Shown here one piece after another: positions 18,444 to 52,500 of a DNA stretch of 54,879 bases; positions within the stretch are counted from its first letter, which is position 1; each line of letters opens with the position of its first letter. The position numbers were made by a program, and so were the translations under genes. The stretch is from a virus (Duplodnaviria; Caudoviricetes): IMG/VR virus record IMGVR_UViG_3300036831_000090, positions 1 through 54,879 of that record, one strand, 5' to 3'. A model generated the notes under the pieces. That model had not been told where the DNA came from. It ran no database searches and was given only the letters and a program-made list of their open reading frames with translations.

Positions 18444-18456
18444 ATCAGAGGATTTT

Positions 18457-19547: not shown

Positions 19548-19555
19548 GAGGGTGA

Positions 19556-20359: not shown

Positions 20360-20601
20360 GACGCATTATGTTTGTCGCGCTTCTAACGCTGCTTTCCGGA
20401 TGTACCTATGCGAGCCATTCGACGAAAGTTCTGCTCGACGAAGGATATACCGATATTCACATCACTGGCTGGAGACCGTTCTCCTGTGGAGAGGGTGATT
20501 TTTATATGACCGGATTTAGCGCCAAAGGGCCATCGGGACGTCCTGTTACGGGCGTGGTTTGCGAAGGATTGTTCAAAAGCGCAACGGTGCGGCTCGACTG
20601 A
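20356..20601 (+). CDS. Small phage lipoprotein
   Basis: MRRIMFVALLTLLSGC lipobox. Confidence 0.75.
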   Translation: MRRIMFVALLTLLSGCTYASHSTKVLLDEGYTDIHITGWRPFSCGEGDFYMTGFSAKGPSGRPVTGVVCEGLFKSATVRLD

Positions 20602-35903: not shown

Positions 35904-36206
35904 TCAGATTTTGCTGATGCTAACAAAATTCCCGAGTACGGAAGCAATTCCCTTGACGATGGCCAGCGCTTTCGGCGTCGGCTTCTTCAGTTCGTTTACT
36001 TCGTAGCTAACACCTGAATCCACGTCCTGAGTGGTCTGTTTAGCCGCTTCCATTTCTTCGGCGGCGTTGCCGATAAGCGTCCCGAGTTTACCCGCGAGCG
36101 GCGATAAATCAATCTGCAAAGCATGAAGCAGTAACCCAAGCGCCACGAGAGCGAACGCGGCGGCGAGTAGGACGATGATCTTTCCGACGAGCCAAATGAT
36201 CTTCAT
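35904..36206 (-). CDS. Membrane-anchored protein (spanin-like position)
   Basis: N-terminal TM, amphipathic tail, follows lysozyme. Confidence 0.5.
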   Translation of the reverse strand: MKIIWLVGKIIVLLAAAFALVALGLLLHALQIDLSPLAGKLGTLIGNAAEEMEAAKQTTQDVDSGVSYEVNELKKPTPKALAIVKGIASVLGNFVSISKI

Positions 36207-36619
36207 GTTTCGTACCAAACTCCGGTGCGCATCTGCTGCGCGAGGCGTAGAGCGCGGGCTCCGACCTGTTTAGCCCAAATCGAGTCCAACATTTCCTGTG
36301 CCGCTAAGTCCCAAGTGCCGCGCGCAATCGCCGTCAGCATGGCCGGAAACTGATCGAGCCGATTGAAACCAATGTTAAACGTCATGTTAATAAGCACAGC
36401 TTGACGTACTTCATTGAGTGCAGGGAACCACGGCAGCCGGAGTTTGAGCGTGTCTTCGACGGCCTTGATGTCGTTCTGCAACAGGAAGTCGATCTCAGTG
36501 TCCGAGAGCCCAACGTCCGTAAGATTCCTTCCGACGCCGATACTAGTCTTGCCCACCGTGTCGGTGTAAGGAAACCGACGAACCCCTTCGTCCTGTCGGA
36601 TTTGAGTCACAACGTCCAT
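36203..36619 (-). CDS. Endolysin, T4-like lysozyme (GH24)
   Basis: DEG.R..PY.DTVGK.SIGVGRNL, RQAVLINM.FNIG, AA.EMLDS.WA.QVG.RA.RL. Confidence 0.92.
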   Translation of the reverse strand: MDVVTQIRQDEGVRRFPYTDTVGKTSIGVGRNLTDVGLSDTEIDFLLQNDIKAVEDTLKLRLPWFPALNEVRQAVLINMTFNIGFNRLDQFPAMLTAIARGTWDLAAQEMLDSIWAKQVGARALRLAQQMRTGVWYET

Positions 36620-36855
36620 CAGAGAGTCTTGGGCGGTTGCTGTCCAGCGGGACCGTCGGAGGCCTTCGAGCGGTTGTAGTTTGCCGCCAATGTGTTCGCG
36701 AACTTAAACGCGAATCGGTAAAACTTTCCGCTGGTCGCGTCGGGCATTTCGAGCGAGTCGATCACCGCGTTTAGAATGTGATAAAAACCCAATGTTAATG
36801 CGGTTAAAGTGGCTGGGTGAATCGCCAGGTAGTGCCAGGGATGGACTGGGGGCAT
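36619..36855 (-). CDS. Putative holin/membrane protein
   Basis: Hydrophobic segment, directly upstream of lysin. Confidence 0.5.
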   Translation of the reverse strand: MPPVHPWHYLAIHPATLTALTLGFYHILNAVIDSLEMPDATSGKFYRFAFKFANTLAANYNRSKASDGPAGQQPPKTL

Positions 36856-37112
36856 TATTTCCTCCATGCGTCTTCTCGAAGCAGCTTGGCGTGAAGTTTG
36901 GCCTCGTCGAGTGTCGCTGCGGTCTCAATCTGCGTGGCAATCATGTGCAGCCACCGCCGTTGGTTCTGGCTATCAGATTCCTGCCGGAGCTTCCCGAGGT
37001 TATTCACGTCCTGTTTTGCTTTCGCAGTATCATTGCGCATGGTGGCGACAAATAAACCTGTACCGAAGACTAGCTGCGCTAAAACAATCAACAGTCCGAT
37101 TTCGATGGTCAT
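36855..37112 (-). CDS. Membrane protein with coiled coil (holin/antiholin-like)
   Basis: MTIEIGLLIVLAQLVFGTGLFVA. Confidence 0.55.
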   Translation of the reverse strand: MTIEIGLLIVLAQLVFGTGLFVATMRNDTAKAKQDVNNLGKLRQESDSQNQRRWLHMIATQIETAATLDEAKLHAKLLREDAWRK

Positions 37113-37456
37113 GCCCGATCCGGCGGGAGTTGGGGATGCTGAAATCGGCGCTTCTGGCGTTCCTCCTCGATGCGGTGCATGGCCGCTTCTTTCCTCGATC
37201 GCGCTTCGCGCAGCATGTCCCACAGCATGAGTTTTCGGCCTTCGTCAGCCGCTTGCTTACTCATGGATGAACCGATGGCCTTCTCCTCGGCCTCGGCCTG
37301 GATGAATTGCACGTAGGGTTCGAACAGTTCGGAGAAGTCCTCGGCGCGCGGGATTCGCGGCCGCGCCATCCCGAGCCAAAATTCCGTCAGGAAGTCGTAA
37401 GCCGCGCCTCCGAGGACGTCGCTTGGGGTTTTGTTCTGTCCGCTGCGTTCGTCCAA
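37109..37456 (-). CDS. Hypothetical protein (115 aa)
   Basis: TTG start; ATGA overlap with next gene. Confidence 0.5.
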   Translation of the reverse strand: MDERSGQNKTPSDVLGGAAYDFLTEFWLGMARPRIPRAEDFSELFEPYVQFIQAEAEEKAIGSSMSKQAADEGRKLMLWDMLREARSRKEAAMHRIEEERQKRRFQHPQLPPDRA

Positions 37457-37479: not shown

Positions 37480-40400
37480 TTATTGAATCGTGCAAAATCC
37501 TACCAGCGTTCCGGTGGCGCTCGTTCCGGTCAGGCTTACCGTAGGAGAGTAGGTTCCGCTGGTCGCACTTCCTGTAAAAGTAGTCCACCAAGTTGTTGTG
37601 AATATCGTGGCTGAAGTCGTTAGACTTCCCGTGGCTAAAATGTTTCCATTGGAGGTCGATGCAGTCGTACCCTGTATACCTACCCCAGCATTCGTCGTGT
37701 CGATGTTCGCGGCTCCGAACACGCCAGATGGAGTTTGCGACCACGTATTTCCGACCGCGAAAGTGGGAGTCGTTCCTGCCGGAACTGACCAGCCGCCTTG
37801 ACAATTCACGCGCCACACCACCGCAGCGTTGGGAAGTGTCATGGTGCAGAGGCTTACGGGAGACAAGGCCAATGTGAGGGTTGAGGTTGTCAGCGCGAAG
37901 CTGCATTGCTTCCGCTGTTCAAGGGGAGCGCTGGCGTTGAGATATGGCGTCGTGCCGCTGAGAACTACGGCAGGTGCTGATCCAGCTAGACTCACGCCAT
38001 TGGTTCCCGCCCATAGGAGGGTTGCCGCCGTTGAGTCGGTAGAGAGAAGTGTTGTTCCAGAACTCGATCCCGAGAACTTCAATCCGGCGTTCCCGCCCTT
38101 GGCCAGTGTGAGCACGCCGTTCTGATCGAATGCCCAGGTAAATCCCTGGTTTGCAGAAGTCAGTTGCCAGTATTGATTGCCCGAATCGTATTTTAGAAGG
38201 TCTGAACCCGTACTTCCGGATACGTTAATCAGAGTAGTGGCGCGGTTCGCGGCGCAGCCATTCGGCGGGCAACCGATATTCAACACGCCATTGGCCGGTC
38301 CCGTATTCATGGTAAATCCGGTACTCCAAACGCCGGTAGAATTGAAAGCACTCGCTGGTGGAGGGAGATGGCCTCCGAGAGTATCGACGTTATAAAGCGC
38401 AGAAGAAGTATTGTTGACAACTCCCATGCCGGAATCATTCCCCGACCAAACGCCGTTGTAATTAAGCGTGAATCCCCCGGAACCGACTCCCTCTGCCGGC
38501 CAATAACGGTTTAGTTGGAAATTGCCAAATGAGAACTTAAAGAAAGGCCCGAGGGCCATCGCCACGGAATCCGCACTGGTCCACGCCACTTTATTCGGCT
38601 CGACCACAATCGTGTTTCCGGCGTTCGTACCCGCGTTCGTCACGTCCACTGACAGAGCCATCGGATACAGATTGTAGGAGCCTCCCGCTTGATTTGATCC
38701 GTTATAGCCTCCGCTAAATCCGATGAAAATGGTGAGGGTTGTGGCGTTCGTGACGCTCACAACCGGCCAGCATTGCCGTAGCGGTTGCACGACCGTCCAG
38801 AATCCAATCCCGCCACTGGTTGTCCAAGTATCGGCTACCAATTCCATGCAATCCCCAGCCTGAGATCCTGATGGCGCGGTATCGGCAACTGTGGCTCCCG
38901 TGGCGTGTGGCTGGGTAAACACCGCTGTGATGTGTGTTCCATCGGGCACGGCGGTAATCTTCACCGTTTCATAGGTGGTCGTATCTGCGATTACAGCAAC
39001 ATCGTTTACCGAGAAACTTGAAGAACTCGCTACCTGTACATTCTGCAAACCAGGCTGCAACTGAGCGATAGTCGCGCCACTCAAATGGGTCTTAGTGAAG
39101 TTCGCGGTAATGTGCGTCGTATCGGCAATCGCGGTGATTGTAACCGCCTCTTGATTCGATTGCGTCTGGTCATTGATGACCATGATGCTGTTGACGGCGA
39201 ATCCCACGGAAGTCGTCACCTGCACACTCTGGCTTCCAGTAATGGTGATGGCCGCTGCCGTGGTGCTGCTCGGCACGGAAATGGCCGCGCTGGTCGTGGT
39301 GTTGGTCGATGCGGTCCATGCGGTGCTGGAACCGGTCACGGTGACGAGACTCGTCCCACTGAAACTGGTAATCGTTCCGGTATTGTATTTGCGAGTGATG
39401 TTGTAGAGGGCGCGGCCATTGCCCTGCGTTCCTCCTCCGGCTGTATTGGCAATCGTGAGCGTGGTCGCTCCCGTACCCGGAGAACCGGAAATCGTTCCGG
39501 CATATTCGACATATCCCTGGCCGCCGCTGGCCGTGAAAGCATGTAAGCCTTCATCGCTGCCGGCGTTGATTCCTCCGAAATCGACCGCGCCATCCTCCAG
39601 CGGGATGCAGTCGCCCATCCCGTAGCACTGCGCTTGGAAATTCTGAGCATTGACTTGAGCATTCGACCAGCTATTCGTCTGCGTGTAGAGCGAGCCAATG
39701 TTTGTTTTATTGGTATACCCGTTCTGGTTGATGTTTTGCGTGCCGTTCATGAAGTTGGTCTGCCATGCGGAAGCAAATGTGTTGTTGGGATTGATCGAAT
39801 CGAGGAGGCCGTTGTAGTAGTGGGTCACGTACTGGCGGGCAAACTGGAGATTGGTCAGGCCATCCCAGCCGGGATTGTAGAGTGTGTCGGCATATCCGGC
39901 GTTGCTATAGTCGATAATGTAACTGCCAGATGGCTGATTGGTGATGGTTGGAAAATACAAATTGGCGATGTGCGCTCCGGTTGGGAATGCTCCGATATAG
40001 GCCCCTGGCGCAAGCGTGGTGCTGCCATTCGCAGCCGTGATTGCCGCTTGCTCCGTCGCATAACAGGTAGACCCACTGACAAACATTCCGTTGTCTTCAC
40101 AGGATGCCGTGCTCCCCGGAGCAATGAACGTCGAAGGAATGGAGAGTACGGGCGTTGCGCCGCCCGTCGATGCAACCTGGTTCGCGGTGCCGGTTACGGA
40201 GGTTACGGTCCCCGATCCTTTTGAGTTGAACGTCGTCCAGTCTGCCGAAGATAGACAACCCGCTTGCGATCCGGAGGCAGTTTGGCATCCAACTGTGCCC
40301 GTGGTGGTGATAGTCCCGCCGGTGATTGGACCGGTAGTAGCGATACTGGTAACCGTTCCGCCGCCGCTCGCCCCGCCGCCTCCGCCGCGAGCAGAAGCGG

Positions 40401-40788
40401 TCGATTGAATGATCGAGACCGTCGTGGTCCCGCCAACAAGCGTGGACATGCGCAGTCGTACATTGGTGTAACCTGCCGTGTTGCCCTGCCAAGTTCCAGT
40501 CGAAGTGACTGAAGTGACCGCCGTAGTCCCGTTGCTTGGCGTTACGTTGAACGGAACCCACGATGCTGCACCGTCGCCAGATGCTTCGACTTGAATGGTG
40601 TTGCCGCTGGCGTTATTGGTGATCGTAAACGTCGCTCCGCCTTGCGTTTGATCGACCGAAACGGAGAGACAATTCGCCGAAACGCCGTTGCCGCATGTTG
40701 CCCCGGCCGCGGTGAGTGCAACCTTTTGCTGCGATCGAGCCAACTGCCAACTGCAAAGAATGAGAAGCGCCAGCACGAGTTTTTTCAT
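37480..40788 (-). CDS. Large fibre/adhesin-like protein with Sec-type signal peptide (1102 aa)
   Basis: MKKLVLALLILCSWQLARS|Q; GTVTS repeats, G.LSSADWTTFNSK fibre motif, tandem internal domain repeat. Confidence 0.75.
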   Translation of the reverse strand: MKKLVLALLILCSWQLARSQQKVALTAAGATCGNGVSANCLSVSVDQTQGGATFTITNNASGNTIQVEASGDGAASWVPFNVTPSNGTTAVTSVTSTGTWQGNTAGYTNVRLRMSTLVGGTTTVSIIQSTASARGGGGGASGGGTVTSIATTGPITGGTITTTGTVGCQTASGSQAGCLSSADWTTFNSKGSGTVTSVTGTANQVASTGGATPVLSIPSTFIAPGSTASCEDNGMFVSGSTCYATEQAAITAANGSTTLAPGAYIGAFPTGAHIANLYFPTITNQPSGSYIIDYSNAGYADTLYNPGWDGLTNLQFARQYVTHYYNGLLDSINPNNTFASAWQTNFMNGTQNINQNGYTNKTNIGSLYTQTNSWSNAQVNAQNFQAQCYGMGDCIPLEDGAVDFGGINAGSDEGLHAFTASGGQGYVEYAGTISGSPGTGATTLTIANTAGGGTQGNGRALYNITRKYNTGTITSFSGTSLVTVTGSSTAWTASTNTTTSAAISVPSSTTAAAITITGSQSVQVTTSVGFAVNSIMVINDQTQSNQEAVTITAIADTTHITANFTKTHLSGATIAQLQPGLQNVQVASSSSFSVNDVAVIADTTTYETVKITAVPDGTHITAVFTQPHATGATVADTAPSGSQAGDCMELVADTWTTSGGIGFWTVVQPLRQCWPVVSVTNATTLTIFIGFSGGYNGSNQAGGSYNLYPMALSVDVTNAGTNAGNTIVVEPNKVAWTSADSVAMALGPFFKFSFGNFQLNRYWPAEGVGSGGFTLNYNGVWSGNDSGMGVVNNTSSALYNVDTLGGHLPPPASAFNSTGVWSTGFTMNTGPANGVLNIGCPPNGCAANRATTLINVSGSTGSDLLKYDSGNQYWQLTSANQGFTWAFDQNGVLTLAKGGNAGLKFSGSSSGTTLLSTDSTAATLLWAGTNGVSLAGSAPAVVLSGTTPYLNASAPLEQRKQCSFALTTSTLTLALSPVSLCTMTLPNAAVVWRVNCQGGWSVPAGTTPTFAVGNTWSQTPSGVFGAANIDTTNAGVGIQGTTASTSNGNILATGSLTTSATIFTTTWWTTFTGSATSGTYSPTVSLTGTSATGTLVGFCTIQ

Positions 40789-40803
40789 TGACTCGAAAAC
40801 CCC

Positions 40804-43104
40804 CTATGGAGTGATCCTGAATGCCACTCCCTGCGATGTCCACCCACCCGTTGCACAGGTAAAGGTAGCGTTGGCAGATGCCGTGGAGAGACCAGTTTGA
40901 TCTTCGAGCATTGACTCCGTGCTCGCTGTTCCACGACTTACAAAGCCAGCCCCTACAGAGATGCCAGTTGCGTTGCAAGTTCCGAATCCGACGACCAGAT
41001 CGCCCTGTGTGACGGCAAACGCGCCACTCGCGAGGGCCGTTCCGGTGCCATTGGTCGTCGCTCCCGCACCGTCTTTCGGAGAAATCTGTCCTATCCCGAT
41101 GTAGGCCGCTTGAACGACTTGAAGCAATGTGCAACTGCCCCCGCTCGAGACTGTCACCGTGGTAGTTCCACCGGCCGCGCCCGGGAAGAACCAAATCTGT
41201 TGAAACACACTTCCAGCGGGATTGGCTTGCACGGCATTCGCCGAGGTGTAAGTGCCGTTGAGGTTGTCGGAGACGGCAAATGTCGGAGCCGAGGGCGCCG
41301 AACAACTTACCCCCACCACTAGAAAGCCGCCGGCGATTACGTTCGCTCCGTAGGCTTGCGTTGTGGTCGAGGCGCCGACCTGTTTTCCGGCTCCACTGCT
41401 CGGAACAAAGGTCCAACTGGCGCTCGATTGTCCGAAAAGCTGCCCGCCCGCGTTGAATAGAATGTTTGAGCTACCCGTCTGTGGGGAGCGACCAGCACCG
41501 CAGTTCGAGCAGTTAAACATCGAACCATTTCCGGATACGATCGCCTGAATGGTAGCCAGTTGGAGCGGCTGGCCCATTTCTACTACGACGTCCTTGGTGC
41601 TTCCACCAGAAAAACCGCCGTTATTGATCACGAATTCCGCATAGTAATTAGTCTGATTCGTGGAATCCGTTCGCAGTAGGCAGGTTGTTTCATGGGTGCA
41701 GGCGTTGTCCCGCCACATATTCTCCGAGGCTTCGGTCGCGAGAGCTTGGGTGTTATTAAAATAGTACCCGATCGCGGAGGCTCCGCCCGAAACGACTCCA
41801 TTAAATCCGTTGTGCTCGACCGTGTTTTGGTACATGTGATTGGAGCCGACTCCAACGGTCAGGCAGACCCCATAATTCACATTTCCCGCCGCTGTGCCAT
41901 TCACGACAGTCCCGTTCGAACTCACGATGCTTTGCAGAACGTCGCCCACGACGTCGATCGCGCACAGGCCGGTCACACTGGTCGTCGCTGGATTGATCGA
42001 AACGGTATTTCCCTGAACAAGACTGGAGTTTCCGATGGCCGCGATTCCGTCACCGTCCTCGCCAATCACAATATTGTTTAATGCTTTTCCGCCCGAAACG
42101 CTGATCGCTGGACTCGTCGACGTCGCGGCGCCTGTGACAACATTCTTTTCGACCAATGCGACGTTCCCTATGATTCCCGAGGTAGCCTCATTCGAAATGG
42201 TGTTCCCACGTACAACTACGTTGTTCTGCGTCGTTGTCACGTTGATGCCATTGCCGGTGAAGGATCCGGAGACGCCCAAAAGCGCGCAGTTTTCAACGCT
42301 GGTCAGAGCCGCATTCAAAACAAACTGGTCGATGTTTCCGCCCTTGGTAAAGACCGCCGAACGGTCAGAAGGGCAAAGGACCGCTGAGTTGGAATTGGAT
42401 AGCGTGATGGCCGCTGTTTGCGTAATCGCTATCTGCGATGGAATGTAGAGCGTGGCGTTCGCCGGAATGGTTACCGCGGTCGAAAGCGTTTGGGTGCCGG
42501 AAAAATCGCTGACGACACACCGGCCATTTGCCGTCAGCGCCGTAAAACAAGTATTGATCTGCGCTCCAAGGTCGGCACCTGAAAAAGAACTCACGTACAA
42601 AGTCTGCGCGTCGCCGGTGATGGTGTTCGCCGATAACCCGAAAGCCTGCTGTCCCGTTGCGATGGTTCCTGCGATTCCGCTACTCGATCCACTACTTCCG
42701 CCCGCCCGAGCGGAAGCAGTGGACTGAATGATCGAAACGGTAGTGCTGCCGCTGACCAGCGCGGACATTCGCATCCGAATGTTCGTGTAACCGGCGGTAT
42801 TTCCCTGCCAAGTCCCGGTTCCGGTCGTGGAAGACACTGCGGTGGTGCTGTTGCTGGGCGTGACGTTGAACGCTACCCATGACGCTCCACCGTCACCGGA
42901 CGCCTCAATCTGAATTGTATTTCCGGCGTTGGCCGTGACCGTAAACGTCGCTCCGCCTTGCGTCTGATCGACCGAAAGCGAAAGGCAGTTGGCCGACACC
43001 CCGTTTCCGCACGTCGCCCCGGAAGCGGTCAGTGCTACTTTCTGCTGTGACCGCGCCAGATGCCAGCTACAGAGAATCAGAAGCGCTACGACTAGCTTTT
43101 TCAT
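40804..43104 (-). CDS. Tailspike/beta-helix-like protein with Sec-type signal peptide (766 aa)
   Basis: Same ~133-aa N-terminus as 37480-40788; parallel beta-helix-like repeats (VRGNTI, GDGIA, VQGNTV). Confidence 0.75.
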   Translation of the reverse strand: MKKLVVALLILCSWHLARSQQKVALTASGATCGNGVSANCLSLSVDQTQGGATFTVTANAGNTIQIEASGDGGASWVAFNVTPSNSTTAVSSTTGTGTWQGNTAGYTNIRMRMSALVSGSTTVSIIQSTASARAGGSSGSSSGIAGTIATGQQAFGLSANTITGDAQTLYVSSFSGADLGAQINTCFTALTANGRCVVSDFSGTQTLSTAVTIPANATLYIPSQIAITQTAAITLSNSNSAVLCPSDRSAVFTKGGNIDQFVLNAALTSVENCALLGVSGSFTGNGINVTTTQNNVVVRGNTISNEATSGIIGNVALVEKNVVTGAATSTSPAISVSGGKALNNIVIGEDGDGIAAIGNSSLVQGNTVSINPATTSVTGLCAIDVVGDVLQSIVSSNGTVVNGTAAGNVNYGVCLTVGVGSNHMYQNTVEHNGFNGVVSGGASAIGYYFNNTQALATEASENMWRDNACTHETTCLLRTDSTNQTNYYAEFVINNGGFSGGSTKDVVVEMGQPLQLATIQAIVSGNGSMFNCSNCGAGRSPQTGSSNILFNAGGQLFGQSSASWTFVPSSGAGKQVGASTTTQAYGANVIAGGFLVVGVSCSAPSAPTFAVSDNLNGTYTSANAVQANPAGSVFQQIWFFPGAAGGTTTVTVSSGGSCTLLQVVQAAYIGIGQISPKDGAGATTNGTGTALASGAFAVTQGDLVVGFGTCNATGISVGAGFVSRGTASTESMLEDQTGLSTASANATFTCATGGWTSQGVAFRITP

Positions 43105-43121
43105 CGTTTGGGAAACCTCCT

Positions 43122-44498
43122 CTATTGGATTCCTTCGACTCGAATGTGAAGGTTATAAGCCATCTGTGCCGCCGTATTCGAAGCGTAGGCGAAGGCGTAG
43201 GTCACGGCCGTCGAACCGTCGGTATTCAAGAGCAGGGGCACGCCGATTAAAACCGTGGTGGTCGCATTGCCGGTATCGGTCGTCTCGATCGTTCCGGCGT
43301 GACTCGTGGCTGGGCAGGTGATGGTCTGCGTTACGCCATCCGGGTCCTTGTAAACAATGGTGAGAGCGCCGAGCGTAGAAGTTGCCGCGCCGGTCGTGGC
43401 TGGCGTCGTGACTTTCGCGTTCCAATTGACCCGATACTGGTTCGTTCCCGAGAATGCCCCTCCGGAATTCGGAGTGAACAGCGTAGTCGTTCCGATGGCT
43501 GCTGTTTGGGCCGTTTTGTCGGTACTGCCGTCGACGTCGACAAGTGCTGCGGTATTGAATTGGATACCGATGGGGTTTCCAACGGTCGCGGTCACAACCT
43601 GGGTATTCACAGGGTTGGCGGTCGGCGACGACCAGGCGTTCATCGACGTTCCTACGTTCGCCGCTTCGAGAGCCCAAAGGCCACCGCCTGCGCTGGTCAT
43701 CTGAATCGCGCCAGTTACCCCGGTATCACCGATGGTTAGTATCCCCATCTGAAACTTGACTTGCGAATTGCTAACCGTTCCAGATGGCGTCGGAACCCTA
43801 AAGAGCAGAGTCGAACTTGGCATGGTAGAAATCTGAGTCTGCACGTTGAAGCAGGATTGCGCGGACGCGGAGCCCGTCCAGTAGTTTCCGCACCAGGCCG
43901 AAGTGGGAGAACTCTGGTTCGTCGGCCCAGCCGTTGCCGGGACGAGGCTCGCGAGAGTCGCGGTGTGCGAGACCACGTTGTAGACGTTCGATCCGTCGCA
44001 GGTAAGCGTGTTGCTCGTTCCGTTTTCGTAACCGACACCGCCATTGGTCGTGCAGTTGAGAATAAAACCGCTTGCTGGGATCGGCAGAGGCACCGAGAAA
44101 GCGGAAATAGCCGCTGAGAGGTCGACGGGGCCGGCGCCGGTCACCGGAGTCCCTGAGCCCGATGCGCCGATACTTGGAGCGATGAAGGCGGTGATGCCGT
44201 CCTTCCAAGTGATCGCGTAGCGGTACGAGCAGCCCGCCGGTTGAATCAAGTTCACGTCGTAAAGAACCTGGGTGAAGTGCCCATTGCCGTCGCCGCCGAC
44301 AATGGTGAAGTTTCTCGGCACCGTATAGCCGTTGTAGGTCGGCTGCTGATTCCCGGGACAGTTGAGGCTTGCGCTCCCCGTGAGAAACGTATACGGAAGT
44401 CCAATCGGGTCGGTGATCGTCGCGGTGATAATCGTATTTTGGCCGAAGCACACCGCCGGCATAAACAGCACCGCGAGCGCGAGTAAAAGTCGTTTCAT
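43122..44498 (-). CDS. Thr/Gly/Ser-rich protein with Sec-type signal peptide (458 aa)
   Basis: MKRLLLALAVLFMPAVCFG|QNT; N-terminal TATITDP.G beta-sandwich-like region; paired Cys. Confidence 0.75.
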   Translation of the reverse strand: MKRLLLALAVLFMPAVCFGQNTIITATITDPIGLPYTFLTGSASLNCPGNQQPTYNGYTVPRNFTIVGGDGNGHFTQVLYDVNLIQPAGCSYRYAITWKDGITAFIAPSIGASGSGTPVTGAGPVDLSAAISAFSVPLPIPASGFILNCTTNGGVGYENGTSNTLTCDGSNVYNVVSHTATLASLVPATAGPTNQSSPTSAWCGNYWTGSASAQSCFNVQTQISTMPSSTLLFRVPTPSGTVSNSQVKFQMGILTIGDTGVTGAIQMTSAGGGLWALEAANVGTSMNAWSSPTANPVNTQVVTATVGNPIGIQFNTAALVDVDGSTDKTAQTAAIGTTTLFTPNSGGAFSGTNQYRVNWNAKVTTPATTGAATSTLGALTIVYKDPDGVTQTITCPATSHAGTIETTDTGNATTTVLIGVPLLLNTDGSTAVTYAFAYASNTAAQMAYNLHIRVEGIQ

Positions 44499-44633: not shown

Positions 44634-44795
44634 TTATCCCCTCCTCGATTTCTTGCTGGTGCGTTTGGCGTGCTGAACTTTGTGGCGCTTCCCGCCGACG
44701 ACCACGGATGTCGCGTGAGTTGGGATGTGGTGAATATGAGTGTAGGCCCGCGATTTTCGATATGCTTCCGCGTCCTTGAAATGTTCGGTTGGCAT
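44634..44795 (-). CDS. 53-aa basic His-rich peptide ending KRTSKKSRRG
   Basis: MPTEHFKD...; TAATG coupling. Confidence 0.6.
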   Translation of the reverse strand: MPTEHFKDAEAYRKSRAYTHIHHIPTHATSVVVGGKRHKVQHAKRTSKKSRRG

Positions 44796-46780
44796 TATTT
44801 CATCCCCAAAACTAGTTTTACGAAGGCCGGATTTGAGTACAGCCGACTCAAGGCCCGGAAATACGGCAACTGCAAAAACTGCCACATGGTCGTCGGTTGC
44901 CGACTGGCAAGGCGCTGCTGGTATTCGAGCAGACGTCCCTGTTTCCACGCTTCCGGATCAAATGACGGGTTCGGCTTCGGAGCGCCGATCGCAGGATACT
45001 TGGCTTCTGTCGGCAATGGCTTCGGAGTAGGCTCCGCAGGCGGCGCTTGGCGCGTTGGCTCCTCGAGCGTTGGCGCACTCTTAGCGCTGGCCGCACGCAG
45101 AGCTCGTACCTTGCCCGCAACTTCCGGCTCCCCACCGAATCCTCGGTACTTATGCAGAATGTCGATGAGGTTCTGGCCCTCGCGGCCGACGATGATCGAA
45201 AGTTTGCTGTCGGGATTCGTGGCTTCCATCAGCTTGAACGCCGGAGAATCCTTGTCCAGAAACCGTTGTGCAAATTCACTGTAATCGCCCTGCAGTTTCT
45301 TCCACGCTTCGCCCTGGCCTTTGGCGTCGGCCGCTTCCTGCAGTACGGGGTCGATGCCTTCCTCTTTCACGTACTTCAGCGCGCGGTAGACGTCGCTCGG
45401 AAGGCGCGCGCCGTGCAGCTTCCCGTTCAATTCCTGCGCGTAACCCCAAGCGTCGGAATGCGGAATCTTGAGCCCTTGCGTGATGGTGTTCTGTGGCGGG
45501 GCGGTGCCGCCCTCCTCACGAAACAGGTCGTTCACGGTCAATCCCTGCTTGGCAAGGTTCGCTTCGATGCCGCGCTTCATGGCTGGATTCGCGCGCTTGT
45601 AGATGTCGGCGAGATTCTGCGCGGCTTCGACGCGCTGGCCGGTCTTGAAAACCGATGCTTCGTCGAGTTGCGGCCCCTCTTTGATGATGTTTCGGAACAG
45701 GGCAATACTTTCCGGAGATCCCTGCAGGATGTTGTCCTCAGCGTATTTCACCGCTTCTTGTGCCGGCGTCCAATTCACCTGCGGGTCGGGTCCGAGCGCG
45801 TCGCGAAAGGCGCTGTACCGCTTGTTGAACGAATCCTTGATCGCCGCCTGAGTCTTCGAGGTGATTTCGCCCACTCGGTCCGACCACGCCTGCAATCGCT
45901 GTCGCGTCGAACCCGCGGCTTCCGTAGCCATCGCTGGCCGCTTGCCCTTCCCCTGCGAGGTCAGCGATTCGCCCGCGCGCGCCTGATCGAATTTCTGCTT
46001 GTCCCGCTGGTACTGCGCCTCGTTGCGCCGCTTGGTCGCTTCGTAGTCGGCCTGGGCCTTGGTATTGGCCTCCTCGATCTTGCGCACCGCGTCCTCGTGG
46101 GTCTGCCGCGCTTCCGAGGTCGCCTGGGTGTTCTCCTGCACGGTTTTGTGGTTCTTTTCGGCGATTTCCTGCATGGCTTGGTTGTGCGCCAGCGTGGCAT
46201 CGGCTTCTGCCGCCGAATTGATGCCCAGCGGCATACGCGCGACGGAGCGCGGAGCCTCCACGAGCGCTGCCGTCGACTTCTTGATCGGTTCCGCTTCGCC
46301 CTTCATGGCCGCCAGTTGCCCGAGACCTGCCGCCACTTGCGTAAGACCTTTCGAGAGGTTGTATTTGTCGCCGCTCTTGTACGACTGGTAGGCCAGCGTG
46401 CTTCCGTTGCGAATTTGATGCTGCGCGCCGTCGATTCCCTGGGCCAGCATGTGAACAGGCGCAAGCGGACCGGTCTTTACGAGTCCTTCAAACATCGACT
46501 CGCCCATATTGTTCGCGACATCGCCCGCGGCGCCCGTGGCAGCCGATGAGAAGCTGTCGGCCTGCTCCACCTTGTCGGCGTCGATCCCGAACGATTCCAG
46601 AATGGTGCGCGGGATGGCGCGAATCGGGTGTTGCTGCTGCGTGGCGTTTAGAATCGGCCCGCCGGGCTTCGTCTGCATGGCGCCGGGTTGCGCTGCGAGG
46701 TCCACCCAAGCCTTCCCGTCCCATCCGAATCGGTTCGTTCCCTTGTCGTCCTGCGCGAAATAGGTGTAATTATCGGCCAC
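44795..46780 (-). CDS. Putative internal virion/DNA ejection protein (661 aa)
   Basis: Helical Ala/Gln/Lys-rich; position after tail tubular genes. Confidence 0.6.
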   Translation of the reverse strand: MADNYTYFAQDDKGTNRFGWDGKAWVDLAAQPGAMQTKPGGPILNATQQQHPIRAIPRTILESFGIDADKVEQADSFSSAATGAAGDVANNMGESMFEGLVKTGPLAPVHMLAQGIDGAQHQIRNGSTLAYQSYKSGDKYNLSKGLTQVAAGLGQLAAMKGEAEPIKKSTAALVEAPRSVARMPLGINSAAEADATLAHNQAMQEIAEKNHKTVQENTQATSEARQTHEDAVRKIEEANTKAQADYEATKRRNEAQYQRDKQKFDQARAGESLTSQGKGKRPAMATEAAGSTRQRLQAWSDRVGEITSKTQAAIKDSFNKRYSAFRDALGPDPQVNWTPAQEAVKYAEDNILQGSPESIALFRNIIKEGPQLDEASVFKTGQRVEAAQNLADIYKRANPAMKRGIEANLAKQGLTVNDLFREEGGTAPPQNTITQGLKIPHSDAWGYAQELNGKLHGARLPSDVYRALKYVKEEGIDPVLQEAADAKGQGEAWKKLQGDYSEFAQRFLDKDSPAFKLMEATNPDSKLSIIVGREGQNLIDILHKYRGFGGEPEVAGKVRALRAASAKSAPTLEEPTRQAPPAEPTPKPLPTEAKYPAIGAPKPNPSFDPEAWKQGRLLEYQQRLASRQPTTMWQFLQLPYFRALSRLYSNPAFVKLVLGMK

Positions 46781-47786
46781 TTGGCACGACCTTTAGGCCC
46801 GGCATCGGTGGCGGTGGTGGTGGTGGTGCAGCATTCGTTTCCGGCGTCGGTCCGCTTGGCGATGGCGCTGTTAGCCACCCGGGAACGGTCATGCCAGCAT
46901 CCTGCAGGGCGCTGATCGCGTCGGTGCGCTTCGCGTTGTAATCGGCGAGAGCCTGCTGTGAGAGTTGCGAGGCCACTTTGGTATCGCCCCAACCCCACGG
47001 ACGCCAAACGCTCGTTTGATTCGAAACCGTCTCCTCGTTTTTCTTCTGTGTCTCGTAATTCTTGAATGCGTTCATGGCCGCGGTCACCGCATGGGTCGCA
47101 TTGGTGCGAACGTCGAGTTCTGGCAGGTCCACGTTCATTTTCTTCGCTCGCTGGGCTACCTGCGCCCCGAGGTTCCCAGTCGGCATCTTGGCTTGGCCGC
47201 CGATAATCGCCATGACGAGAGCGTCGAGCGGTCCCGCAGCCGCGGCGCCGCCTTCCCCGGGTATTGGAAACCGCGTCTTTCCCGTGTCCACTTGCACATA
47301 TTTATTCTGGCCCTTGTCGAATCCCCAAATTCGTCCCTGATTATCAACTTTCAGGTCGCTCAAGCCCTCTGGTTCCTTCGGCGGCCCTTTCAACTTGGCG
47401 ATCGCATCGAGGTACTGATTGTATTTTGCGATGTCGCCCCTCTGTAGGTAGTAGGCCGCGCCCGCTTGCAGCGTCGCAAACTTCGGTTCCGGTGGCGCAC
47501 CCGGCCGGAGTTCTTTGATGGAATAGGCGCTGGTCGAAGGATCCCACGAAACTCCCTCAATTTCTCCGCCTGCGCCTTTCTCGATGCCCGCTGGTGCCGG
47601 TGACCGCATCTGCTTCAGTCGTTCCTGAATTTCTTGTACTTCGAGCGGCCCTTTGAGGTCTGCGAGTTTCTGGCGCGCGTTGTCGATCGCCATTTGGTTC
47701 AAGCGCTGGCGCCAGTCGAGGTTGATGTCGTACCCTCGCCCGACGTCTGATCCGAAATCACCTATACCGCGTCCAAACCAGCCCAT
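46770..47786 (-). CDS. Putative internal virion/ejection protein (338 aa)
   Basis: Position; Gly-rich N-terminus, poly-Pro C-terminus. Confidence 0.55.
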   Translation of the reverse strand: MGWFGRGIGDFGSDVGRGYDINLDWRQRLNQMAIDNARQKLADLKGPLEVQEIQERLKQMRSPAPAGIEKGAGGEIEGVSWDPSTSAYSIKELRPGAPPEPKFATLQAGAAYYLQRGDIAKYNQYLDAIAKLKGPPKEPEGLSDLKVDNQGRIWGFDKGQNKYVQVDTGKTRFPIPGEGGAAAAGPLDALVMAIIGGQAKMPTGNLGAQVAQRAKKMNVDLPELDVRTNATHAVTAAMNAFKNYETQKKNEETVSNQTSVWRPWGWGDTKVASQLSQQALADYNAKRTDAISALQDAGMTVPGWLTAPSPSGPTPETNAAPPPPPPPMPGLKVVPSGR

Positions 47787-48448
47787 TATTGGTAACCCCC
47801 TACGTCCGGAGGAGCCATTTCCGGCGGCAGATTAGCCTGCGTCGGCGTCAGTCCGAGCCAGTCGAGCGGCTGATTCGGTGGCGGCATTGGCGTGGCACCG
47901 CCTGTGAGTTGCAAAAGGTTCGGCTGACTGGCTCCGGTGAAACCACCGCCTCCACCCGGCGCGGGAGGAGTTGCCCCGGGCGCGCTGAACGACTTCATCA
48001 GCATCGCGAGCAGAGGAGCAAGTTGCGCATTCTGCGGAATCGTGGCCGCAAACTCCGCCGGCAGTCCCAATTTCCGCATCACGAGTTGCAGTGCGTTCTG
48101 TTGGTTCTGCTGTGCGTAAGGCGCGAGCCCCTGTGTCGTCGCCTGAGCGATCAGTCCCGGCGCTTCGGAAAGCCCTTGTTCCGCGAGATTGGCGTTGGTC
48201 GCGCCCGTGACCGCTTGCACGAGGCTGGCGTTCAGCGGCGCAGTTGCGGCAGTGACTTCGTTGCCGAGCGCCTGTGGCGACAGATTCGCGTTGGCCTGAG
48301 CCTCTTTCGCGGCGATCGAGCGCTGGTGGTCGGCCGCGAGGTTGCCAATGAGGCCGGCACCGGTCGCGCCGAGGCCAGCGACTTCACCCAACCCTTTGAC
48401 AGCCGGTGAAGCGAATAAAGTTCCGAGACTACCAAGAAGTCCAGGCAT
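47786..48448 (-). CDS. Putative DNA ejection/pilot protein
   Basis: Gly/Ala hydrophobic N-terminus, Gln-rich. Confidence 0.55.
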   Translation of the reverse strand: MPGLLGSLGTLFASPAVKGLGEVAGLGATGAGLIGNLAADHQRSIAAKEAQANANLSPQALGNEVTAATAPLNASLVQAVTGATNANLAEQGLSEAPGLIAQATTQGLAPYAQQNQQNALQLVMRKLGLPAEFAATIPQNAQLAPLLAMLMKSFSAPGATPPAPGGGGGFTGASQPNLLQLTGGATPMPPPNQPLDWLGLTPTQANLPPEMAPPDVGGYQ

Positions 48449-48456
48449 ACGTTCTC

Positions 48457-48888
48457 CTAAGAAAAATTATTCAGGAACGAACTGAGATTCACGTCCGTCC
48501 CGTTGACTGCCGCGTTCGTCGGTTGCTGGTTCGACGGCGTGAAGGTATCGCCGGTCGCAGCCTTCCCAGCCGCATTCGCACCTGGTTGTCCCACTACTCC
48601 CGAGAGGATTTGCGCAACGAGGCTGTCGTAATCCGGGTTCGCGAGCCCTGAGGTCGCCCCGATGACGTTAGGAAGTTGTTGGGAGACGAGGGCTTTCTGC
48701 TGTAAGAGTTGCTGCGCGTCCGGCGGCGTTGGCGCGGGCGTAGATGGCGCTGCTGCATTGGGTTTTCCCCCTCCAATGTTGGCGATGGTTTCTCCGAGAC
48801 TCGCGGCTCCGCCGATGGCTCCGATGGCCGGAGCGGCCGCACCGAGCCATGCGGGCAAGAAAGCCAGTGCGCCGATTAGTGGTGGCAT
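48457..48888 (-). CDS. Putative DNA ejection/pilot protein
   Basis: MPPLIGALAFLPAWLGAAAPAIGAIGGAASLG; GAGG RBS. Confidence 0.55.
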   Translation of the reverse strand: MPPLIGALAFLPAWLGAAAPAIGAIGGAASLGETIANIGGGKPNAAAPSTPAPTPPDAQQLLQQKALVSQQLPNVIGATSGLANPDYDSLVAQILSGVVGQPGANAAGKAATGDTFTPSNQQPTNAAVNGTDVNLSSFLNNFS

Positions 48889-49283
48889 AAAATCCTCGCT
48901 GCTTTTTCGAGCGATCCGGCCAGCGGAATGTGACCTTCTTGAATCTGAAATCCGCCGCCGCGCTCGCACATCGGAATCATCGACCGCTCGACTTCCCCTT
49001 GCGGGTTGATGTACGTGAAATACGCTTTGAATCCCATCGCCAGTGAATCCTTGATCCATGCCCGAAACAGCAGCAGTGCGGTCGCCTTCGGTGCCGAATC
49101 CTCGATGCTCATGCGCACGAGGAAAATAAGCCCGTGGCACGGCGCGGCCATCAAAATCCCGACGATGCGGCCCCCGCGTTCGGCCACCCAGCAGAACGAA
49201 TTCATCACCGGCATGGACTCGAAGCCAGTCCCCAGGTGTTGCGGGAACGGTTCGCCTTCTCGAAGTGTGCGAACTTCGGTCAC
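48876..49283 (-). CDS. GNAT-like acetyltransferase (position analogous to T7 gp13)
   Basis: VRTLRE, WVAERGGRIVGILM; lies between nozzle and ejection genes. Confidence 0.6.
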   Translation of the reverse strand: MTEVRTLREGEPFPQHLGTGFESMPVMNSFCWVAERGGRIVGILMAAPCHGLIFLVRMSIEDSAPKATALLLFRAWIKDSLAMGFKAYFTYINPQGEVERSMIPMCERGGGFQIQEGHIPLAGSLEKAARILCHH

Positions 49284-49518: not shown

Positions 49519-52500
49519 CTAAATTGCGGACACCGGAACGCCAAAAGGTCTTCCTTCTATTGCCCAGTCCCATCCGTCGATCTCAATGTGCAAATTGCCG
49601 CTGAGTGTCGCGTCGAAGCGCAGTGCGGTCAGTCCTACGTCCGCGAACAGGTCGAAATCTCCATTCGGAGGAATGCGGTACTGCACTGGCGATTGCGCGA
49701 CTGCCGACGCCCGCGGCGTGACCGTCAAAAGCCCTGCGACGCTGCTATTCGTGCCTCGGAAGATCACCTTGCGCGCCCACAACCGTTGACTGACGTTCGA
49801 GGAAGCGATGGTAGGCGTGCGCACCGACCAGGCCACGTTCACCGCCGCCGCTCCGCCGCCCGTGTACCACTGCACGTCGCCCGCTTGCCACCGTTGGAGC
49901 ACGCCGTCACTAAATCCCGCGAGAATCGTCAGCGGATTTGACGTTACTGGCTGCACCTGGCAGATGGTTCCAATCGGGAACGGCAAATCAACCGGCGCGG
50001 CCCAGCACTTTAGTATCAGGTCGTAGAGGAACATGCGCGTCAGTTTTCCGCCGCTGTTTCCAATCGGAACGGCGATCGCATACATCGGAGGATTCGCGGT
50101 CTGCGCGGCCCACGACAGCGGCAGATAATTCGCATCGACCACGACAATATCCTGAGTATCGAAATCGTTGACCGGAAACAGGTACGGCCTGATCTGCTCG
50201 CTAATCACTTCATCACGGAAGCCATTGAACGTCGCGTATCCGAGATGGCAATAGCGCACGAGGCCGTAGCCCGGGACGAACTGAATCGTTCGCGGCGCGA
50301 GGCATCCCATGTCCGAAGAAACCGGCTGAATGGCGAAGTTGTTGGCGCCGAAAACGCCGATCAACTGGTACGGAACGCGATACTTGAAGGCGATGAGCGA
50401 ACCTTCCGGCGGAATGCCCTGCGCGGTGATGGTAAACTTTCCAAGTCCCATGCCTTCGGCGCCGTCGTCTTTGTCGAGAAACGCCTGATTGACGGGATTC
50501 CAGCCAAAAATGTTATTCGTGTTCGACATCCGAATGGCCGTTGGACCGTCGAGGCCGTTCGACGTGTTCGTTGGTGACGTGTTCAGCGCCCACAGTGAGC
50601 CAGCATAGATTTCGATGTGACCGGCGCCTGGCGGTGGAGGTGCGGTCGAGTTCAAAAGACCAGCAACCGTCCAGATGATGTTGTTATCCTCAAACTGCTC
50701 GCCCTGCGTCGGCTGCGGACTGTTCCACCCGGGCTCGGAAGCTCCCGAAGTACCTGCTTGCGTGCAGGTCAGGTAGATCGGGTTCCCCGGTTGCGTTGCC
50801 GGCACGATGATGTCGCCGACCGCATAAGCAACCATTGTCGTCCACACAGGGTAGGCCGGTGTGAAGTTACTGATAATCGGCGTGGTCGAAACGGTGTAGG
50901 TTCCGGTCGATGCGCCGCCGCTCGCCGTAGGAATCCGGATGGTAAACGTGCTGCCCGACACGGCAATTACAGGACCAACAAAGTCGTAACTCGAATCCGT
51001 CATGTTCGACAGAATCACGTTCGATCCCAAGGGAATGAAGCGTGCGGAAGTCGGGTCGGTCTGACTGATCGTGCCTCCGAGCGTCACTGTCACCTGATCG
51101 CCCGAAACGGCCACCGACACCACGTTCCCGGTCGGCGCCGGATTCACGCCGGTTCCCGTCGAATCCCAAAACGCCTGCATCGAAAAACCGTTCCCGAGCG
51201 CGATGACCATGCGATTCGTGAACTGCTTGAACTGCGGCAACGGTCCGACGAGGCCAATGATTCCGCCAGAAGGTGTCGAACTCGTGGAATTGCTCAAAGT
51301 ACCTGGCCCAGTCGTTCCGCCGCCGCCAGAACCGCCCGCGGGAGGAACGCCGAGCGCGACTTCCGCCGCCGGGAAATAGGCCACGATATTCGAAAACGAG
51401 TAAGGAATCGGAATCGCTCCGGTATTCGGCATTTGGTACAGAACGGTTTGCTGCGTCGTGTCCATCGTCGGCGGTTGCGACGACGGAGACGTATTGCTAA
51501 TCGTGATCGACGATGGCGTGCCTGTGCTGTAAGAAATAATAATCTGAACGAGGCTCACGAACGGAAGGGCCGTGCCAGGGTCACTGCTGCTGCTCCCGAC
51601 ACCGATGACATTCCCGAAATTAGCGTTATTGATATCGGCCGGCGCCCAAGTCGTCCCCCAAAGGTCCGTCGGCCCGCCGTAAATCACGGTCGCACCGGTC
51701 CACGGGGCTGCGCTCGAGCGGTCTGTACCCACCACCACGCCCGCTTTGAGCATGAACACGCCCTCGTCGGCAATTTCGTCGGCGAAGTGGCTGCTTACGC
51801 TTTTCGTGATGTTGACCTGGATTCCGAGGATGGTCGCGCCGCCGGGAATCGCGAAACCGAAGCCTTTCGACGCGAGATACTGGCTCGAGGAACTGAACGC
51901 CGGAAGGGCCACCTGCGCTATTCCAGCGCCAGTCACGCCGTTCGGATTCGACCAGGCTGTAGTCCCGGGGCCACCAGCCATGTTCGAGCCGTTGCCAGCC
52001 GTGGTCGGGCCGACGGTGATAGCTGACGTTCCACCGGTTCCTGATCCTGGGCCGCCTTTGACGATGACGTTCTTGGAGTTCGGAACGCTGAAAATGGTGT
52101 AGCTGCCGTTGAACGTGCCCGGGATGAAGTTCGCGGCCGTCAGCGGCAATCCCACGAGCGAACCCGCTGGCAAGGAATCGGTAGAGGCCAGTGTGAACTG
52201 GATGAACGCCTGCCCGCCGCTCGTGTATCCGGTCGCGGTGACGTCGTTGAACGTCATGGTGGTAAAAGACGAGATGCCGGTATCGAGAAACGTGGCCGTC
52301 GCGGTCAGCGGATTCGGCTGCAGGACCGGAAGGTTCGAAGCCACGAGCAGCGTTTCGCCACCCGGAGCCGTCCCGCGGTAGACGTTGTATCCGAAGGCAT
52401 TTGGAACTGTGTTCCACGTCAGGCGAATCTGATTGTCGCCGCCGCCGGTCGTTTGACTGGTTTCGTTCGAAGCGACCGTTTCGCCACCCACTCCGTCGAT

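Follow-up and report, generated by a model that had tools for sequence, protein, structure and literature searches.

Three neighboring minus-strand genes, here called p1, p2 and p3, fill the tail fiber position in the genome of an uncultured short-tailed phage known from the IMG/VR record IMGVR_UViG_3300036831_000090 (54,879 bp, completeness rated 98%; this whole stretch of DNA is the window referred to below). Their products are built like receptor-binding proteins, and each starts with what appears to be a cleavable leader for the general secretory (Sec) pathway of the host. The fibers of tailed phages, including those of the T7, SP6 and K1-5 type, lack signal peptides and are folded in the cytoplasm, and we know of no tailed-phage fiber that is exported. 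The sequence comparisons and structure models described here make it very probable that p1, p2 and p3 are exported, cleaved and disulfide-bonded, as a first-pass annotation of the same DNA had proposed. That they then become part of the phage particle is a further step, and we give about an even chance to the complete chain of events, in which Sec export, a cut before Gln20 and oxidative folding would be followed by joining to particles at lysis, virion membership included.

The leader is 19 residues long in all three proteins. Its n-region holds two basic residues (K2 K3 in p1 and p2, K2 R3 in p3), the hydrophobic stretch that follows measures 11–13 residues (the best 10-residue Kyte-Doolittle mean is 3.12–3.16 and begins at residue 4), and residues −3 to −1 are A-R-S in p1 and p2 and C-F-G in p3, with glutamine at +1 in all three. 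The open reading frames (ORFs) and N-termini are exactly those quoted in the first-pass annotation, which had described the same basic, hydrophobic and small-residue layout with its +1 glutamine. Among window ORFs of at least 80 amino acids (aa) in the six frames, 17 have an N-terminal hydrophobic window of at least 2.0, and p1, p2 and p3 are the only plausible genes among these 17 with the full leader layout. Both models that were made (the p1 N-terminal domain and p3) place a hydrophobic helix at residues 2–16.

Homologs keep the leader. In all, 201 leader-bearing proteins and 121 others were collected for the comparison. The leader is present in all 53 proteins of the p2 search, nearly all of which continue with a small-x-small site and then Gln, and in 12 of the 13 proteins that share the p3 N-terminal domain, the thirteenth being cut at its 5′ end so that it starts inside the leader. 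A search with the p1 N-terminal domain gave 118 new cluster representatives, 105 of which pass our leader rule; the 13 that fail it comprise four truncated starts that retain the end of a leader, three leaders that the rule missed, and about six proteins that are truly leaderless or are fragments. Gln20 is invariant in the alignments of both N-terminal domains (A1, 33 sequences; A5, 14 sequences). When cleavage sites were counted with a regular expression (small-x-small, then Gln) and controls, 76 of 85 leaders had the site, as against 318 of 1839 interior windows (17%). Across the family a median of 17 residues (interquartile range 16–17), c-region included, separates the last basic residue from the +1 Gln, and Ala stands at −1 in 142 and at −3 in 102 of 178 proteins. 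This geometry, a 17-residue span with small residues at −3 and −1, is what one expects of a type I signal that is cleaved, and not of a membrane anchor. Of the 19 leader codons, 13 are changed between p1 and p2, with 11 synonymous changes and two conservative nonsynonymous ones, and the N-terminal domains of the pair differ by 55 synonymous and 16 nonsynonymous codon changes; judged by its codons, the leader is under purifying selection.

The cysteines speak for export independently of the leader. Proteins folded in an oxidizing compartment tend to be rich in cysteine, with even counts, and Cys parity has served to recognize oxidative folding in bacteria. The closely paired cysteines remarked on in the first-pass annotation are indeed numerous: p1 and p2 have 17 Cys each, 16 of them after the leader, and p3 has eight, seven of them after the leader. 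Close spacing is illustrated by p1, where gaps of 8, 10, 12, 6, 26, 5 and 19 residues occur. In the mature parts of the leader-bearing members of the first 171 proteins, the Cys count is even in 64, odd in 11 and zero in one (1.93 Cys per 100 aa), and when one protein is taken per variable-part cluster (43 clusters) it is even in 37, odd in six and zero in none (2.18 per 100 aa). A further 92 representatives at 50% identity gave 74 even, 18 odd and no zero counts for the mature part (2.12 per 100 aa), and in the same set the variable part alone (81 proteins) gave 71 even, eight odd and two zero. Leaderless relatives, counted by cluster (39), are different, with 13 even, 16 odd and ten zero counts and only 0.69 Cys per 100 aa. 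The same division is seen among proteins that share modules with p1, since the ten that share its C-terminal domain have 10–26 Cys and leaderless proteins that share only its shaft repeats have 0–2. Two Cys pairs are conserved in the N-terminal domains discussed below, C32/C40 in N-domain A (nearly invariant in 33 sequences) and C47/C90 in N-domain B (invariant). A conserved leader of cleavable length under purifying selection, on proteins that are Cys-rich with even counts, unlike their leaderless module-sharing relatives, supports both export and disulfide formation.

The genes lie where fibers would be expected. The first-pass annotation had put them between ejection-type genes and the lysis cassette, and four Cys-free internal or ejection-type genes are in fact found just upstream of p3 and a lysis cassette just downstream of p1 (Table 1). 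It had also called p1, p2 and p3 the three largest beta-rich genes; they are not the three largest genes of the module, as the ORF for an 1112-aa tail candidate is larger. The order of the module, read as adaptor, nozzle, internal core, fiber and lysis, matches the T7 layout. The terminase, the portal and the major head protein matching phrog_9953 mark this as a tailed phage whose heads would be filled in the cytoplasm. The minus-strand module runs off the start of the record and resumes at the far end of the linear record. Family scans of the 48 other ORFs in the window, in a genome that is 98% complete, found no other fiber candidate, and the earlier statement that no signal-less fiber lies elsewhere holds as far as those scans reach.

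In sequence, p1, p2 and p3 are built like receptor-binding proteins, with a conserved N-terminal domain followed by swapped C-terminal modules. The first 130 residues of p1 and p2 are 85% identical, leader included, and p3 is unrelated in sequence to either of them. The body of p2, which is beta-helix-like, is also found behind the other type of N-terminal domain, in P0002 and others. Nine of the ten proteins with the p1 C-terminal domain (P0173–P0182) start with a leader and the tenth starts with the tail of a cut leader. The C-terminal knob of p3 is 40–73% identical to 104 other proteins, 84 of which are leaderless and fiber-like. A tree of this knob (109 columns, a quick method, poorly resolved) interleaves leader-bearing and leaderless proteins; the leader label needs 18 changes on it, compared with a shuffled mean of 21.1 (29 of 500 shuffles were as low), and its well-supported branches force at most two leader changes. 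One leader-bearing protein, P0066, and one leaderless protein, P0098, have the same N-terminal domain (52% identity) and the same tip (71%), so that otherwise ordinary fibers occur both with and without a leader. No PHROG or NCBIfam model matches p1, p2 or p3, and the only Pfam match is a sub-threshold Beta_helix in p2. The fold expectations of the first-pass annotation were thus borne out in part: the p3 knob matches phage fiber and needle knobs, PRD1 P5, 4-1BBL and C1q at middling scores, but the p2 beta-helix falls below the Pfam cut-off and the p3 shaft is poorly modeled. Among 29 scanned proteins that are homologous to p1 and p2 in the N-terminal domain, 25 had no Pfam match; Peptidase_S74 was above its cut-off in one (P0034), and sub-threshold GDSL and K1-lyase_C matches occurred in others.

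Two different N-terminal domains lie directly behind the leaders, N-domain A in p1 and p2 and N-domain B in p3, and no Pfam, PHROG or NCBIfam model covers either. N-domain A closely resembles two proteins of Bacillus prophage systems in structure, namely SPbeta YomS (6i5o_A; VIA Z 13.2, root-mean-square deviation (rmsd) 1.9 Å over 98 residues) and the C-domain of PBSX XepA (residues 178–279; VIA Z 13.0, rmsd 1.8 Å over 99 residues). The next best structural match, which is unrelated, has Z 8.1, and Foldseek also pairs the domain with the YomS/XepA C-domain fold (E 5.4e-5). Sequence identity to YomS and XepA is only 13–18%, and the A1 profile, which held unaligned C-terminal columns, did not recover YomS from the sequences of the Protein Data Bank (PDB). 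An exhaustive HMMER search with the leaderless p1 N-terminal domain returned 482 clusters at E≤1e-3, and in the best 150 of these the domain starts at about residue 20–45; its fold recurs in many uncharacterized phage proteins. Two unusual occurrences may be mentioned. A leaderless stand-alone relative of 125 aa (40% identity) lies between terminase and portal genes at 9995–10372 of L004, a different phage-like region in a metagenome-assembled genome (MAG) labeled Actinomycetota, an arrangement that resembles stand-alone YomS. In L033 (6089–8314), a different phage type, a leader-bearing N-domain-A protein of 741 aa with 22 Cys has head-like genes on one side and a series of leaderless tail-like genes on the other, which shows that more than one genome layout can accommodate this architecture.

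N-domain B is transthyretin-like. Its structural matches include residues 1–94 of the cyanophage A-1(L) neck fiber (VIA Z 8.4), the transthyretin-like domain of carboxypeptidase D (Z 8.1), a tail tip chain of Ur-lambda (Z 7.6) and a neck chain of phage XM1 (Z 7.2). The matches to A-1(L), Ur-lambda and XM1 cover the first 91–94 residues of three virion-bound chains, a likeness that is a lead only, because such Z scores are in the middling range of the tool.

Ten phages, the window included, form a clade that shares the tail and internal-protein genes, and in every one of them the gene that comes directly after the homolog of the 661-aa internal protein is leader-bearing and Cys-rich. Counting ORFs of about 190 aa or more in the fiber slot, with overlapping shadow ORFs in other frames set aside by eye, 35 of 39 across the clade have a leader (three of three in the window, four of four in L005, three of three in L006, three of three in L012, three of four in L015, two of two in L017, two of two in L031, six of seven in L039, five of seven in L040 and four of four in L045). 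The exception in L015 (12492–13166) is a leaderless 224-aa protein between two leader-bearing genes; by eye, its first residues resemble a GIY-YIG homing nuclease. L040 has a leaderless fiber-slot protein of 575 aa with a single Cys, whose residues 1–124 can be aligned to N-domain B (BLASTP 33% identity, E 0.003; hhalign probability 79%, E 1.6e-5) and lack both conserved Cys. Behind these residues come a CBM_5_12 match below threshold and a GDSL esterase (37.8 bits against a cut-off of 32.9 bits). The substrate of such an esterase, probably a surface polysaccharide, would be extracellular, and we therefore read this leaderless protein as an ordinary virion spike. It suggests that N-domain B may be a tail anchor that comes in a cytoplasmic version, without leader or Cys, and an exported version with a leader and the Cys pair.

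Other ORFs near the fiber genes of these relatives also have export-type N-termini. ORFs of about 200 aa past the fiber genes of L015 (15236–15841), L045 (18043–18645) and L006 (18815–19402) begin with R-R-x-F and a hydrophobic stretch, much like twin-arginine translocation (Tat) signals, and the L006 ORF has a lipobox-like Cys as well; these phages would thus encode several further exported proteins. After the fiber genes of L005 (16812–18562) and L006 (16626–17765) there are further leader-bearing ORFs (194, 190 and 379 aa), with FN3/Ig-type repeats by sequence and Gln just after the predicted cleavage site.

We propose that p1, p2 and p3 are the fibers or spikes of a T7-style short-tailed phage, made as Sec pre-proteins. 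The 19-residue leader would carry each chain through the host inner membrane, and signal peptidase I would cleave after the small-x-small site and expose a glutamine, which may cyclize to pyroglutamate as in hosts that follow the “Q-rule”. The Cys-rich chains would then fold, with disulfides formed in the oxidizing compartment. Particles built in the cytoplasm would be fiberless and would meet the finished fibers only once holin and endolysin open the envelope; the endolysin has no leader, which makes this holin-dependent opening the first meeting of the two. The N-domains would dock the fibers on the tail, A for p1 and p2 and B for p3. In the classical T4 and P22 systems, fibers or spikes can be added in vitro to fiberless particles, so late addition is chemically plausible. 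Architecture and gene context favor virion membership for all three predicted proteins.

The most serious alternative, although we consider it unlikely, is that p1, p2 and p3 are exported and never enter the virion, which would adsorb through decorated tail proteins. They might then act on the envelope or, after lysis, on the surroundings, by stripping or modifying surface polysaccharide, by masking receptors so as to prevent superinfection or re-adsorption to debris, or by aiding lysis as has been proposed for XepA. Sec topology would by itself separate them from particles assembled in the cytoplasm. Among solved structures, the XepA C-domain/YomS fold comes nearest to N-domain A, and the xepA gene lies between tail and lysis genes and its product is reported, in the excerpted text of PMC6834076, to be exported and to be absent from mature PBSX particles. 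A signal-bearing SGNH esterase of Xanthomonas phage PBR31 resembles tail-associated hydrolases and adjoins spanin candidates (PMC10975493, in excerpt), and phages of Porphyromonas gingivalis are described in part of PMC10367356 as encoding Q-rule exported proteins whose function is not known. Within our own data, the 8-kb glycan-synthesis cluster of the window (see below) suggests a broader investment in surface remodeling, and the 419-aa and 1112-aa tail candidates have extra FN3-like domains with which the virion might adsorb.

On the other hand, if p1, p2 and p3 were not virion parts, the window phage would be left without any fiber or spike. p3 has no enzyme-like part and looks like a plain fiber whose binding knob is common to the 84 leaderless fibers mentioned above, and the leaderless N-domain B on the L040 esterase points to a virion anchor. 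A protein released into the periplasm would also have no access to surface glycans before lysis. Display at the cell surface, the other fate that the first-pass annotation had considered, finds no secretion tail, autotransporter part or family model of any kind on p1, p2 or p3 to support it. NCBIfam, which includes models of the type IX C-terminal sorting domain, matched none of the 15 proteins scanned, p1, p2 and p3 among them, and a type V autotransporter is also rejected, with no Pfam match to a C-terminal beta-barrel translocator at E≤0.1 and C-terminal residues Q, P and Q, none of them aromatic. A lipoprotein signal (signal peptidase II) was rejected as well: there is no lipobox, and the leader Cys follows L in p1 and p2 or V in p3 and is not conserved in homologs.

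Several further observations weigh against our proposal that p1, p2 and p3 are virion fibers exported before assembly. Long Gly runs link the N-domains to the bodies, and such flexible linkers suit free modular enzymes as well as fibers; P0004, P0007 and P0014 have a leader and neither N-domain. The leaderless fiber-slot proteins of L039 and L040 could be the sole true virion fibers of those phages. The odd number of Cys in mature p3 does not fit the even-count pattern. The leader calls were made by a heuristic rule of our own. No outer-membrane spanin was recognized in the lysis cassette. The names adaptor and nozzle are based on position, because neither the 419-aa nor the 1112-aa protein matches a solved chain in the PDB by sequence. 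Finally, our literature search found no report of tail-fiber-type proteins of tailed phages with cleavable Sec leaders.

It is quite improbable that each gene makes two products, an exported form and a cytoplasmic form that builds the virion, through a second start or incomplete export. Phage depolymerases are known in general to have soluble and virion-bound forms, and in-frame candidate starts are present in p1 (TTG, codon 16) and p3 (ATG, codon 13, and GTG, codon 16). These starts are not conserved, however, since codon 16 of p2 is CTG and Met positions wander within the hydrophobic core of homologs, and the bias toward even Cys counts speaks for oxidative folding of the form under selection. 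Moreover, a Shine-Dalgarno-like purine run precedes the first ATG of each gene (GGGGA at 7 nt in p3, GAGGAGG at 11 nt in p2 and GGGGG at 11 nt in p1) and none precedes the candidate internal starts, so that an internal start that skips the leader, which the first-pass annotation had named as the way in which it might be wrong, is disfavored. Still less probable is an uncleaved leader that would act as a signal anchor and hold the proteins at the inner membrane, where they might be displayed or provide a platform for assembly; the helix at residues 2–16 in both models would fit it, but the stretch is short for an anchor, even with the c-region included, and the conserved small −3 and −1 residues with Gln at +1 are the signature of a cleavage site. 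That the leaders are annotation artefacts or neutral relics upstream of the true starts, with no export, is close to refuted, since only the general rule that fibers are cytoplasmic speaks for it, and the genes are tightly packed (gaps of 17 nt between p3 and p2 and 15 nt between p2 and p1), each first ATG has its own ribosome-binding motif, the next Met of p1 is residue 114 within a conserved domain, and the leader is conserved family-wide under apparent purifying selection.

Sec use by phages has precedents. In filamentous phages, pIII and pVIII have cleavable leaders, pIII forms periplasmic disulfides, and both are joined to the particle outside the cytoplasm. They are thus Sec-exported virion pre-proteins, as p1, p2 and p3 would be, although virion membership is only predicted for the latter; filamentous particles are assembled by extrusion through the envelope, and the phage described here is a tailed phage that would fill its heads in the cytoplasm. 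Sec and signal-arrest-release (SAR) endolysins and the PBR31 gp40 esterase are, like the present proteins, late phage products that use host Sec (PMC6834076 and PMC10975493, both in excerpt), but each of them is a small enzyme with a single domain that belongs to the lysis cassette; in the present phage the leaders are on fiber-type proteins of 458–1102 aa and the endolysin is leaderless. Fibers of the T7, SP6 and K1-5 type (the gp17 slot) share with p1, p2 and p3 the succession of internal-core, fiber and lysis genes, the presence of several such genes per genome, and a conserved N-terminal domain with freely exchanged C-terminal enzymatic or binding modules; they differ in that p1, p2 and p3 each start with a Sec-type leader followed by Gln at +1, contain many paired Cys, and match no isolated-phage sequence. 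XepA and YomS have the beta-sandwich of N-domain A (4+4 strands), and the reportedly exported XepA is also encoded next to lysis genes, but these two are stand-alone pentamers, and in p1 and p2 the fold follows a classical Sec leader and forms the N-terminal module of a large protein whose body resembles a fiber or depolymerase. What appears to be new is a Sec leader on proteins built like receptor-binding proteins; Sec use was known for coat proteins of filamentous phages, for some endolysins and for small accessory proteins.

Gln directly past the predicted cleavage site recalls the Q-rule. Phage-encoded examples of it are known (described in parts of PMC10367356 and PMC10653852), but those are small proteins of no known function and not fiber-type proteins. 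A 2018 study (PMC5837995) compares Bacteroidetes mainly with Chlorobi, Spirochaetes, Chlamydiae and Cyanobacteria and, in its excerpted text, reports a high frequency of +1 Gln in a few other groups as well, such as 77% in Ignavibacterium album, and does not mention Acidobacteria. The host clues from our own searches are slight. The ESM Atlas gave a lead to Acidobacteriota with a score of 0.84, below the level at which the tool is trusted, and a scan of genome contigs found one locus, in the MAG labeled Actinomycetota; the domain occurs in only two of 401 genomes sampled from Actinomycetota. A tblastn search with p2 against 50,697 phage records found no match. Isolated phages offer only remote or partial matches for the large terminase (TerL) and the 1112-aa protein, and so no host could be inferred from them.

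Table 1. Predicted features of the window discussed in the text (all on the minus strand; functions are putative; pLDDT, predicted local distance difference test)
Feature	Position	Strand	Description	Basis
Major head protein	619–1623	minus		PHROG phrog_9953
Portal	4044–5771	minus	head-and-tail module	family scans
Large terminase	8530–10332	minus	head-and-tail module	family scans
Lysis cassette	35904–37223	minus	transmembrane proteins of 122, 82 and 104 aa and leaderless lysozyme of 138 aa	PF00959, E 1.1e-9; PHROG endolysin
p1	37480–40788	minus	1102 aa; leader, N-domain A, Gly linker, shaft repeats, large body, C-terminal domain	ORF, searches
p1 C-terminal domain	37483–37998	minus	residues 931–1102	common to ten proteins
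p1 shaft repeats	40099–40371	minus	residues about 140–230	also in leaderless fiber-like proteins with 0–2 Cys
p1 N-domain A	40384–40731	minus	residues 20–135	AlphaFold model, pLDDT 87.4
p1 leader	40732–40788	minus	codons 1–19	codon comparison with p2
p2	40804–43104	minus	766 aa; leader, N-domain A, Gly/Ser linker, beta-helix-like body, C-terminal beta domain	ORF, searches
p2 beta-helix-like region	41749–42252	minus	residues 285–452, right-handed	PF13229, E 0.0067, 16.5 bits, below 25.9-bit cut-off; lead only
p2 N-domain A	42706–43047	minus	residues 20–133, YomS/XepA-C-like beta-sandwich	identity to p1; fold modeled on p1 copy
p2 leader	43048–43104	minus	codons 1–19	codon comparison with p1
p3	43122–44498	minus	458 aa; leader, N-domain B, poorly modeled shaft, TNF/C1q-like C-terminal knob	ORF, model, fold matches, homologs
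p3 C-terminal knob	43128–43535	minus	residues 322–457	homologs, fold matches
p3 N-domain B	44079–44441	minus	residues 20–140, beta-sandwich, invariant Cys47/Cys90	pLDDT about 76–92 over residues 21–100
p3 leader	44442–44498	minus	codons 1–19, C-F-G before Gln20	Gln20 in 14 of 14 aligned N-domain-B proteins
Four internal/ejection-type genes	44795–49140	minus	661, 338, 220 and 227 aa; Cys-free	position; synteny in relatives
Tail candidate (“nozzle”)	49519–52857	minus	1112 aa	ORF; position
Tail candidate (“adaptor”)	52858–54117	minus	419 aa	ORF; position

The rest of the window can be dealt with briefly. The four internal-type proteins matched no family in Pfam and PHROGs scans. Both tail candidates contain FN3-like inserts, and the 1112-aa protein has a middle part whose variation takes its length among relatives from 802 to 1127 aa; the variable middle part and the inserts suggest surface-exposed accessory domains on the tail itself. 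An 87-aa minus-strand ORF (5768–6031) overlaps the portal start by 4 nt and matched no family; its N-terminus has R-R-K-L-L followed by a hydrophobic stretch and is twin-arginine-like. On the plus strand, an 8-kb run of glycan-synthesis-type genes (13205–21347) encodes a DUF7694 protein, a STELLO-like glycosyltransferase, a B12-binding radical SAM protein, a GT1-like protein, two GT2 glycosyltransferases and a methyltransferase, as well as a UDP-glucose/GDP-mannose dehydrogenase-like ORF of only 267 aa. This run may alter the host surface glycan, or possibly glycosylate the exported proteins. As to glycosylation motifs in the latter, D[ST][AILVMT] is raised only in p1 (nine against an expected 3.4 ± 1.8), p2 and p3 show no such excess, N-x-S/T shows none at all, and glycosylation of p1, p2 and p3 was set aside as a candidate on these counts. 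A RecT-family recombinase is encoded at 27418–28542 on the plus strand, no integrase was found among the ORFs scanned, and the window contains no tRNA genes.

Taken beyond this one phage, the evidence lets us suggest, tentatively and at a little under an even chance, that a lineage of tailed phages, together with others that gained leaders independently, completes its virions outside the cytoplasm, with Sec-exported, Gln- or pyroglutamate-capped and disulfide-linked fibers added at lysis as a second, extracytoplasmic route. Were virions indeed completed after export, tailed phages would have an assembly route not known before, and tail fiber assembly would not always be cytoplasmic. Infectivity would then hinge on the Sec, signal-peptidase and disulfide machinery of the host, a new class of host factors and a possible target of defense, and fibers made stable by disulfide bonds and by a blocked N-terminus may be well suited to soil. 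If the proteins are not virion parts, 482 clusters (at 50% identity) of unnamed exported fiber-like proteins need explaining, and they could be a phage tool to rework or mask the host surface. Annotation pipelines that filter fibers by the lack of a signal peptide, or that call signal-bearing proteins “morons”, would misfile proteins of this type, and the leader, Cys density and Cys parity together make a simple sequence test that separates the two kinds of fiber.

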